NCBI RefSeq assembly: GCF_035084215.1
Contig: NC_090368.1
Coordinates: 5,332,001-5,396,000, forward strand
Reading direction: 5' to 3'
DNA: 64,000 nt
Source of the DNA: Heptranchias perlo
Taxonomy: Eukaryota
Shown here: positions 11,454-58,959 of the stretch, piece by piece
How the letters are laid out: each line of letters begins with the position of its first letter
How positions within the stretch are numbered: position 1 is the stretch's first letter
Notes under the pieces: generated by a model
The model's database searches: none
Told to the model about the DNA's origin: nothing
Seen by the model: the letters and a program-made list of their open reading frames with translations, nothing else
Position numbers and translations under genes: made by a program

Positions 11454-11727
11454 AATTGTAAACAATTTTACAACACCAAGTTATAGTCCAGCAATTTTAT
11501 TTTAAATTCACAAGCTTTCGGAGATTTTCTCCTTCCTCAGGCAAATGTTTCAAGAGCTCCTTGAAGCCTACGTATTTATACATATTGAACAATACATGGT
11601 GTATTGTTCAATATGTATAAATCTCCGAAAGCTTGTGAATTTAAAATAAAATTGCTGGACTATAACTTGGTGTTGTAAAATTGTTTACAATTGTCAACCC
11701 CAGTCCATCACCGGCATCTCCACATCA
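11454..11727. mobile_element. Fold-back Penelope-like element remnant inserted in a CR1 fragment
   Basis: About 74-bp inverted arms (11454-11527 / 11619-11692), internal hairpin, tail ccccagtccatcaccggcatctccacatca, and duplicated target tattaattttaa (11444-11455 / 11728-11739). Confidence 0.75.
11508..11544 (-). ncRNA. Minimal type I hammerhead ribozyme motif (Penelope-associated)
   Basis: Minus strand reads UUGC-CUGAGGA-A-GGAGA aaa UCUCC-GAAA-GCUU-GUGA. Confidence 0.6.
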
Positions 11728-11978
11728 TATTAATTTTAAACCTGAGATTGATAGATTTTTGTTAACCAAAGGTATTAAGGTACATGGGGCTAAGGCGGGT
11801 ATATGGTCACAGATCGGCCATGATCTCACTGAATGGCGGAACAGGCTCCAGGGGCTAAATGGCCTCCTCCTGTTCCTACGATTCTAGTACATAGGGTCTG
11901 TCTGTAGGCCACAGACAAGCAGCAGTCGTATTCTCCGTTCCGGCAGTAACCCGTTCCGCATTTCCCTCTTTTTTTTAG

Positions 11979-55723: not shown

Positions 55724-55876
55724 CTTGTACACTTTAGTGATGACTCGACGCTTTCTCTTCGGCTCGTCGTCCTCCTGATCGCTGGTCGGCTCCTCGCCCT
55801 CGTCAATGTCAAAGTCCGAATCCACCTCGTCCTCGCTCTCCGACTGGTCCGTGTTGTATTCATCGTCTCCGGATTC
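55724..55876 (-). CDS. VPS72: VPS72 exon 2
   Basis: ESGDDEY...DSDFDIDEG...KRRVITKVYK; ends at a non-canonical GC donor (AAG|GCAAGG). Confidence 0.9.
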
Positions 55877-56064
55877 CTGGCAGGCCAAAACGCAGATCAA
55901 GTTAGCGGCCCGTCGGATTTAGGGGGTGAAGAAAAAGAAGCAAAAAAAAAAAAAAAATCGATTGAAGATAAAAGTCTCGGGTAGTTGCGGCCGGCTCTGG
56001 GAATTTTACCCCAAGTCCTACGGGAGGGAATTCCCAGCAATGGACTGCGCACGCTGTTAAAAAA

Positions 56065-56460
56065 GATCTCGCATTTCTATCGCGCCTTTCACCACCTCAG
56101 GACGTCCCAAAGCGCTTTACAGCCAATTAAGTACTTTTGAAGTGTAGTCACTGTTGTAATGTTGGAAACGCAGCAGCCAATTTGCGCACAGCAAGATCCC
56201 ACAAACAGCAATGAGATAATAACCAGATCATCTGGGGTTTTTTTAGCGATGTTGGTTGAGGGATAAATATTGGCCCCAGGACACCGGGGAGAACTCCCCC
56301 CTGCTCTTCCTCCAATAGTGGCCGTGGGATCTTTTACGTCCACCTGAGAGGGGCAGACGGGGCCCTCGGTTTAACGTCTGATCTGAAAGGCGGCACCTCC
56401 TCAGTACTGGCACCGGGAGTGTCAGCCTGGATTATGTCGTTTGAGTCTCTGGAGTGGGAT
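56065..56460 (-). mobile_element. Deu-domain SINE
   Basis: Family match. Confidence 0.83.
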
Positions 56461-57258
56461 TTGGACCTTGGAAATCTGGAACTCTCTCCCCCAAAATGCT
56501 GTGGATGCTGGGGACAATTGGAGCTTTTAAGACTGAGGTCAATAAGATTTTTGTTGGGTAAGGGTATCAGGATTATGGAGCAAAGGCGGGTGAATGGAGT
56601 TGGATCAGCCATGATCTAACTGGATGGCAGAACATTCGAGGGGCTAAATGGCCTCCTCCTGTTCTTAAGTCAGCATCAGTCAACCCTGACTCCACTGTGC
56701 TTTTGGATATCTTGAGATTACCTTTTTAAATACTCAATTAATGTAAAAAAAACTAAATTAACTGAGATGTTGTCTGCGGCTGAAAAAGGACTAGAGAGCA
56801 GTGGATAAATCGACCAGGGTGGGCAAACATAATTCAGTTCCCATTCTGTCCTTATCTTTGTATTGCCATTATGAATGCCTATATCTGCATTTATAATATA
56901 AACTGCCTATGTAAACTACTCCTAAGGTAATTATTCCCTAACCCCACCCCCCCAAGAGATGGCATTGTGCCCCCAATGGCGGGAGGGTATAATTACAATG
57001 TGACAAGTTTACATAGGCCGTCTCCATTATAAATGTGGGCTTAAGAACTTAGAATGGAAACAGTTGGCAGAAGAGATTTTTAATATATTAGAATTTAATA
57101 TCTAAATCTTTACAAGGATGATACCAGAACTGAAAGCTTACAACTATCAGGAAAGGCTGGGGCTCTTTTCTCTAGAAAAGAGAAGGCTGAGGGGGGACCT
57201 GATCGAGGAATTTAAGATTACGAAAGGGTAGACGTAGAGAAGATGTTTCCCCTTGTGG

Positions 57259-57473
57259 AAATGTAAGGAATCTTACAACACCAGGTTATAGTCCAACAGT
57301 TTTATTTGAAAATCGCAAGCTTTCAGAGGCTTTCTCTTTCGTCACTTCACCTGACGAAGGAGAAAGCCTCCGAAAGCTTGTGATTTTCAAATAAAACTGT
57401 TGGACTATAACCTGGTGTTGTAAGATTCCTTACATTTGTCCACCCCAGTCCATCACCGGCATCTCCACATCAT
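57259..57473. mobile_element. Fold-back Penelope-like element remnant inserted in a CR1 fragment
   Basis: About 86-bp inverted arms (57259-57344 / 57352-57437), same tail as the 11.5-kb copy, and a near-duplicated target tcc(c/a)cttgtgg (57248-57258 / 57475-57485). Confidence 0.78.
57347..57383 (+). ncRNA. Minimal type I hammerhead ribozyme motif (Penelope-associated)
   Basis: UCAC-CUGACGA-A-GGAG aaagc CUCC-GAAA-GCUU-GUGA: stem I UCAC/GUGA, stem II GGAG/CUCC, palindromic AAGCUU at stem III. Confidence 0.68.
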
Positions 57474-57939
57474 GTCCACTTGTGGGAGGAGACCAAAGCT
57501 CGGGAGTCATAAATATAAGAGAGTCACTAATAAATCCAATCGGGAATTCAGGAGAAACTTCTTTACCCAGAGAGTGGTGGGAATGTGGAACCATTGAGGG
57601 GAATAGCGCAGATGGATTTAAGGGGAAGCTGGAGGGAAAAAGGAATTTGCTGATGGAGTGAGACGAAGAAGGGGAGGGAGGAGGTTTGTGTGGAGCATAG
57701 ACCAGTTGGGCCAAATGTAAAATTCCAAGCAAATCAATTAGATTTTATGGAATAATTTTAATTACATGAAAGATTTGCATTTTATTTTAATGTAGGAACA
57801 AAATACTAATGTAAAACCTTTAATTGGCAAAGTGTGGGCGATGTAATTGTAGTATTGAGTTAATTAACACTATAAATGTGAACCGAGTCCCCTGTTCAAT
57901 GGACCCAGGGACATAAAAGATGTCCATAGTAAAGATAGG

Positions 57940-58680
57940 TTGGCCCGCACGCCCCGGCCATGAGTGACACCCCCCGCGGCCAATAGAAAACCAGCATTCC
58001 GATGAGTGGCACGCAACTCCGCCAATCGGAGCACAGATGAGGGGGCGGGACTTCCCCCAAATCCCGCCCCCCCTCCCCTCACTAGCAAGTTAGGTTGCCG
58101 CCTTCCCCGAACGACCGTCGCTCTCCGGCTTAAAAAGATGGCGGTCGCGGGCGCCCGTTTCACCTCCTGGAAGCCTCCGTAAGTGGTCTTGTAGAAATCG
58201 TCCTCCTCCTCCGCGTCCAGCAGCCTCGACATGCGGTTGCCGGCATTTTTCCGCGACGGCCGGTTCTGCGCCAGGCTCATCCTCGGCGGCTTATCGATTC
58301 GCTCGGGCTCCACTGATCGCGCCTGGGCCGCCCCTCCCCCACCTTAGCAACGGCCAGGCGCGACCAATCGACCCGCGGAGTGCATCGATCGCTGGCCATT
58401 CTGGGGGAAGCCTCCATTTCTATTCTAGCTCTGTGTGGCTCTTCCCCCCCCCTCCCCCCCCCCCCCCCCCGGCCCCTTAACAAAACAAAAAACACTTCTG
58501 GGTTGGATGGACGGTCAGCCTCGCCGCAGCGGTCGTTCCGCACCTGCGAGCCCGCGCCAAGGGCTATTCGACTGGGTGGGGCATCTCGGCCAACCCCCCC
58601 CCCCCCCCCCCCCCGCCTATCGTGTCCTGTCGTCTTCTCCCCACACACCCCACACGCCCGAGCGTGCGCTTTCCGGCACA
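57940..58680. promoter_or_regulatory. VPS72 CpG-island promoter / first-intron regulatory region
   Basis: CpG-rich; CCAAT boxes near 57980, 58022 and 58364; GC box GGGGCGGG near 58041; YY1-type AAGATGGCGG near 58135. Confidence 0.7.
58164..58280 (-). CDS. VPS72: VPS72 exon 1
   Basis: MSLAQNRPSRKNAGNRMSRLLDAEEEDDFYKTTYGGFQE; donor GTGAAA. Confidence 0.94.
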
Positions 58681-58959
58681 CGTCACTGGATAAGGAAGAA
58701 AGAACTTGCATTTCTACAGCGCCTTTCACGACCTCAGGCCGTCCCAAAGCGCTTCGCAGCCAAATGACGTACTTTTGGAGCGCGGTCACCGTTGTAATGT
58801 AGGAAACGCGGCCGCTAACTTAGGCACAGCAAGATCCCACAAACAACAATGAGATAAATGAGCGTATAATCTGTTTTTTGACATATATATTAGCTAACAG
58901 GCTATTGGGTTGTATTAATAGAACCACTCAGTATAAATCTCCATTTTGACACTGTACAG

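Follow-up and report, generated by a model that had tools for sequence, protein, structure and literature searches.

Intron 1 of VPS72 in Heptranchias perlo (genome 3.25 Gb) carries a fold-back insert of 216 bases (57259-57474) that holds a hammerhead ribozyme motif, and the locus raises the question of how such a mirror-image insertion arose and whether the ribozyme had any part in it. Coordinates are those of the window, the whole 64,000-nucleotide stretch of contig NC_090368.1 that was analysed (Table 1). We consider it quite probable that the insert is a short head-to-head insertion of an abundant hammerhead-bearing, endonuclease-bearing (EN+) Penelope-like element (PLE), likely Neptune, that it was made by two reverse transcription (RT) events on uncleaved RNA, and that its ribozyme is inactive here. 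The VPS72 locus itself is ordinary and its ribozyme motif is of a published kind; the roughly ten thousand insertions of the family bear on how inverted PLE ends form and on what the hammerhead does.

The VPS72 insert and its hammerhead motif

The first-pass annotation had placed the insert at 57259..57473, which is correct at the start and one base short at the end. Its inverted duplication of about 86 bp is confirmed by two 86-nt stretches (57259-57344 and 57352-57437) that are 97% complementary, with the arms differing at three positions, each of which is a left-arm departure from the family sequence. The inverted repeat folds with a z score of -18.5, and 0 of 200 shuffles were equally stable. 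The annotated target duplication of about 11 bp is likewise present, with 1 mismatch over 11 nt, and the flanks of the insert join with a 10-12 nt overlap in four other copies of the interrupted host repeat, which we take to be a LINE (the left flank matched 17 loci and the right flank 20, window included). The assignment to VPS72 intron 1 stands, since exon 1, with its YL1 Pfam match, and exon 2, with a motif at about 55822, lie on either side; the insert sits about 800 nt into the intron. VPS72 is read from the minus strand and the intact hammerhead on the plus strand is therefore antisense to it. The same intron holds a much older inverted repeat (56863-56946 and 56977-57060; 84 nt, 70%), perhaps a decayed MITE, and a SINE-like dispersed repeat (84-87%) lies both in the intron (56059-56219) and upstream of exon 1 (58696-58857).

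Table 1. Features of the VPS72 insert and its surroundings in window coordinates, with the loci of a second PLE family outside the window
Feature	Position	Strand	Remarks
Target-site duplication, left copy	57248..57258	+	11 nt
Inverted arm	57259..57344	-	pLTR copy; its 3' end is the 'short' site of the family
Arm junction	57343..57344		2-nt microhomology; same place as the predicted transcription start (inferred), ~30-31 nt behind the TATA of longer copies
Forward arm	57345..57474	+	pLTR between the predicted start and the 'long' 3' site
Minimal type I hammerhead motif	57347..57383	+	predicted cut between 57379 and 57380 (CUU triplet)
'Tail', ~36 nt	57438..57474	+	one arm only; ends on the ATG that opens the ORF in longer copies
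Target-site duplication, right copy	57475..57485	+
Older dispersed repeat split by the insertion	57121..57720	+	flanks contiguous in 4 other loci
VPS72 coding exon 1	58164..58280	-	YL1, E 1.9e-7
VPS72 exon 2	55724..55876	-	bounds approximate; from translation
Second-family loci	L133-L138, L171, L172, L213-L224		e.g. C1:198.12-198.28 Mb, C4:141.42-141.81 Mb, C13:8-79 kb

Base by base, the motif reads as annotated, with UCAC (57347-57350), CUGACGA (57351-57357), an A (57358) and GGAG (57359-57362) followed by the loop AAAGC, CUCC (57368-57371), GAAA (57372-57375), GCUU (57376-57379) and GUGA (57380-57383). Two earlier interpretations of this sequence required revision. Stem III had been described as the palindrome AAGCUU; because A14 and U17 are core residues, helix III of a dimer is confined to AGCU, 4 bp (A15.1-U16.1). 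[quoted passage not shown] S3 in PMC4209133 (Cervera and De la Pena) have U at position 17, so that neither residue is a new variant. The stretch fits the Fig. S3 consensus of that study position by position, with the CUGANGAH core and its extra nucleotide, the G10.1-C11.1 pair, GAAA, the palindromic 15.2-16.2 positions, NUH, a short stem I and an AU-rich 3' flank. Among the 56 motifs of that figure, none of them from cartilaginous fish, turtle and rotifer entries share GCUU and a lamprey entry shares the stem I strands UCAC/GUGA, whereas stem II here, at 4 bp with an A-C fifth position, is shorter than in most entries. The 37-nt motif alone folds no better than its shuffles (z = -0.85), and an Rfam scan at E values up to 10 returned no hammerhead model among 16 weak matches, which were miRNA-type hairpins only, all below gathering scores. 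Support for the motif therefore derives from the consensus match and from its family rather than from folding energy.

Within the family, core positions were invariant in 64-68 of 68 arms that had been selected by anchors outside the motif, and most losses fell at CpG. Variation lay in N7, loop II and wobble-compatible stem changes, the last mostly one-sided (C-G to U-G in 8/68, A-U to G-U in 10/68), with two double changes in stem I and a paired fifth position of stem II in 40/68. The AGCU palindrome was self-complementary in all 68 arms, with a weak predicted dimer helix (-2.5 kcal/mol), and CUU is a slow hammerhead triplet. In an unrelated second PLE family of this genome the core is unchanged, and each of the three stems has a different sequence that still pairs. 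The pLTR positions on either side of the motif show about the same conservation as the hammerhead core, and selection on the fold is therefore only moderately supported.

The ribozyme of the VPS72 insert is likely inactive in place, being antisense to VPS72 and, by prediction, blocked through pairing with its mirror copy. In modelled read-through RNA the pair probability of stems I and II is 0.000 and the hairpin masks both motif copies, and in a lone forward arm it stays below 0.04 with the tail paired to stem II. In that predicted fold, tail positions 57463-57467 pair with the 5' strand of stem II at 57359-57363, a pairing that could possibly act as an off-switch releasable by protein binding. 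The copy on the VPS72 strand, in the left arm, has G in place of C3, no 5' strand for stem I and three substitutions. Two of these convert G10.1-C11.1 to A-U with stem II still paired, which is probably chance, one being a CpG change. These features bear on the idea that the insert is a domesticated intronic ribozyme or hairpin regulating VPS72, in the manner of the RECK or Clec2 hammerheads. Its position in intron 1 and the predicted 86-bp duplex in VPS72 pre-mRNA, which could be edited or diced, would suit such a role, but the sense-strand motif is without C3 and stem I, and the insert is a young, family-identical copy inside another repeat and one of thousands, leaving regulation of VPS72 a very improbable function.

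A PLE family with short mirror-image copies

Exact pattern searches of the genome returned 7,307 matches to the core 28-mer of the window, 3,868 to a sister pattern and 19,146 to a downstream 36-mer, with 0 matches to the reversed controls of each. The insert is one of thousands of short mirror-image PLE end copies, and its forward arm is 100% identical over 127 nt to the copy at L068. An older head-to-head insertion of the same family lies elsewhere in the window (11454-11541 on the minus strand and 11623-11728 on the plus strand, 86-91% identity), with one short and one tailed end and a duplication.

The same repeat flanks RT/endonuclease ORFs elsewhere in the genome, and this, together with the consensus fit, supports the earlier description of the insert as a ribozyme-bearing Penelope terminal repeat. 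At L170 the order is repeat, ORF, repeat, with the repeats 3,062 bp apart and the ORF opening at the tail end, giving a unit of about 3.06 kb in which a single RT ORF lies between hammerhead-bearing pLTRs; the copies examined are frameshifted. The ORF carries DKG and YIDD, and an RVT_1 Pfam match was obtained in two of five element segments scanned. A CX4CxxC linker is followed by a C-terminal endonuclease region that aligns (E 6e-21) with a PLE protein having a Pfam GIY-YIG match. The Pfam scan of the family's own segments gave no direct GIY-YIG match, NCBIfam gave sub-cutoff RT matches only, and a PDB sequence search gave no match. A linker of the form CX2-5CxxC before the endonuclease marks Neptune and Nematis (PMC8557442), and the ORF fits an EN+ PLE of Neptune or Nematis type, likely Neptune.

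The linkage of the arms to an ORF also decides the fate of a DNA transposon origin, which the first-pass annotation had named as one of the outcomes that would overturn its reading. A MITE whose long terminal inverted repeats hold a hammerhead-like motif by chance would account for a short, hairpin-shaped, duplication-flanked insert of very high copy number; the ends, however, are asymmetric, 5' truncation is variable, and the spacing between paired arms ranges from about 0 to 4 kb, filled in widely spaced pairs by pieces of the RT/endonuclease ORF. An element with fixed symmetric termini and no RT-linked parent is refuted by this linkage, and a MITE origin has a negligible probability.

Known EN+ PLE insertions (PMC3846280, PMC8557442) share with this family the head-to-head arms, the target duplication, the inverted 5' pLTR, a TATA and initiator-like motif in the pLTR and a tail of 30-40 bp that, as here, is on one end. 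They differ in that the whole insert here consists of two pLTR pieces in 216 bp, in that duplications are mostly 12-15 bp here versus 8-10 bp in the rotifer examples, and in copy number, which here amounts to tens of thousands of arms. Family sequence was present in three of four contig-only sequencing runs compared with the L170 pLTR-ORF junction; the 15 contig-only runs had shares of 0.20 or less, and their contigs show no starts, ends or strand. A possible 69-nt intron (57380-57448) found no matching joint in four such runs and is unsupported. Our literature search, with most subscription journals and Repbase outside its scope, returned no paper on shark PLE hammerheads, on twin priming in PLEs or on telomeric PLEs in vertebrates. 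A recent preprint (bioRxiv 10.64898/2026.07.22.740005) includes one cartilaginous fish, and its supplements may list the present family.

How the fold-back may have formed

Arms of the family end 3' at two sites, 57433-57441 and 57470-57476 in window coordinates. In 136 of 154 head-to-head pairs, part of which were picked on hammerhead or truncation patterns, a long (tailed) arm is joined to a short (tail-less) one; two pairs are long with long, two short with short and 14 have another end. A MAFFT alignment, in which the second family was misaligned, was left out of the pair counts. In our samples of 154 pairs, 92 arms and 68 arms, some insertions contribute both arms, related subfamilies are included, and the beginning of contig C1 is the main source. 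A duplication of at least 10 nt (1 mismatch allowed) flanks 87 of 99 pairs, compared with 1.6% of 1,959 shuffled pairs.

The 5' ends are distributed differently. Of 92 arms chosen through a downstream anchor, with positions counted from C3, 36 reach at least 120 nt upstream, 6 end at -119 to -41, 6 at -40 to -16, 24 at -15 to -1 (1.6 per nt), 12 at 0 to +14, 3 at +15 to +29 and 5 further down; the window's forward arm begins at -7/-8. A TATA motif lies at -35 to -44 in most of the long copies listed, in several subfamilies with different upstream sequence, and at -36 in the unrelated PLE family. This spacing would place the start site at -6 to -14, and together with the truncation points it suggests that transcription of the element starts 6-14 nt upstream of the hammerhead core.

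None of the 92 sampled arms has its 5' end at the predicted cut site (+29). Genome-wide, 96 arms diverge there, compared with 126 and 209 at the two positions three bases away, and among the first 30 inspected per position 9 were truncations at the cut site and 5 and 19 at the controls. The resulting genome-wide estimates are about 29 versus about 21 and 132; a local palindrome inflates the higher control (+32), and microhomology leaves the exact junctions uncertain by a few bases. Several of the cut-site cases are accounted for by microhomology with stem I, and two loci represent one insertion. The predicted cut site is thus not enriched among 5' ends.

This distribution weighs against a model in which hammerhead-cut or circularised RNA is the template, so that the copy would be the product of a ribozyme or a unit akin to a retrozyme. 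The structure-preserving variation in the family and the compensatory change of all three stems in the unrelated family would indicate that the fold is maintained, circular templates have been proposed (PMC4209133), a handful of copies have their start at the cut site (L253 and L254 look so on both arms), and a religated circle may serve long copies. The VPS72 copy nevertheless retains the whole motif upstream of the cut, 5' ends show no excess at the cut site, there is no tandem array, and a circle leaves the peak just upstream of the ribozyme unexplained, so we regard a cut template as improbable. Non-LTR retrozymes (bioRxiv 10.64898/2026.07.22.740005) resemble the insert in having a type I hammerhead in a short non-coding pLTR-derived unit, but they form head-to-tail tandems with a hammerhead per unit, whereas this locus is one head-to-head pair with one intact motif, and we rejected a non-LTR retrozyme as its identity.

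The pairing of long and short ends, the 5' peak upstream of the ribozyme and the lack of cut-site enrichment lead us to favour two priming events on uncleaved RNA. A TATA promoter would drive an element RNA from the start site proposed above, and the element protein would make a staggered cut about 12-14 bp wide. Synthesis of cDNA would then begin from one DNA end at the end of the tail (AUG) and from the other about 36 nt further upstream; the two templates would usually be a single RNA or RNAs of one source. With priming in the 5' repeat, both cDNAs would run out of template close to the 5' end of the RNA, at a length of only 90-130 nt, and be joined by microhomology into a fold-back. Any activity of the hammerhead would be limited to transcripts of source elements, where it would be a weak ribozyme aided by dimer formation or by protein.

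The main rival is a snap-back, in which a single cDNA folds back and serves as its own DNA template for the mirror arm; in the variant proposed in PMC3846280, an antisense template primes itself. Gaps of 20 nt or less between the arms in about half of 99 pairs, with junctions often tight and palindromic, fit a snap-back. So does loop II, identical on both arms in 78 of 97 pairs, and the roughly 93% of pairs whose arms belong to one subfamily are also predicted by fold-back of one cDNA. A single folding cDNA, on the other hand, does not explain the fixed second end site in 136 of 154 pairs, nor why either arm may reach further 5' (the short arm in 39 pairs, the long in 22, equal in 24). Arms of different subfamilies, found in 7 of 97 pairs (at least two loop positions differing; about five clear by eye) versus 66% under random pairing, are likewise unexplained by it. 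Taken jointly, the two forms of snap-back appear unlikely.

Two priming events have a precedent in the Poseidon element PAc of Anolis carolinensis, for which PMC11167929 describes in vitro a tail made by two internal RT start sites, cutting and extension of both target strands, and hammerhead mutants that still insert. PAc and the present family are alike in the two fixed RT start sites that bound the tail, the uncleaved RNA template and the lack of cut-site ends. They differ in clade and layout: the ORF of PAc opens within the hammerhead and has the RT start sites some 115 nt inside it, whereas in the present family the ATG follows the cut site at a distance of 92 nt and is itself the position of the long start site. 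The fixed ends, the 5' peak and the absence of cut-site ends reported here fit and extend that single in vitro study. Whether every head-to-head insertion stems from two-ended priming at two fixed sites of one TATA-started RNA, with a tail-blocked ribozyme leaving no mark, is in our judgement an evenly balanced matter. If so, inverted pLTRs and tails would be explained in one step and the role of the ribozyme would shift to RNA turnover or translation.

A second PLE family at telomeric repeats

The unrelated second PLE family lies outside the window (Table 1) and may merit more attention than the VPS72 locus. Its unit of about 7.9-8.3 kb, in copies more than 99% alike, has its own minimal hammerhead (578 exact matches), an ORF1 with a weak GDSL/SGNH match (E 0.011) and an ORF2 with RVT_1 and GIY-YIG; esterase-bearing Neptune-like PLEs of fish are known. 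The first 100 of the 578 matches listed group near contig ends, in head-to-tail arrays whose 5' side faces the contig end, the exceptions lying about 1 Mb inside on C1 and C10. The joint between 5'-truncated copies and telomeric repeat arrays varies in position; at 3' ends, the joint with telomeric repeats is at one fixed point. The family looks like a telomere-targeting, endonuclease-bearing vertebrate PLE with an organisation resembling that of HeT-A/TART or Athena. A third, short hammerhead-bearing unit is interleaved in the telomeric arrays L213, L218, L137 and L219; it has a 3-bp stem II, a longer palindromic stem III, no extra A and a fixed 3' end joined to telomeric repeats, and is possibly a non-autonomous partner or a retrozyme.
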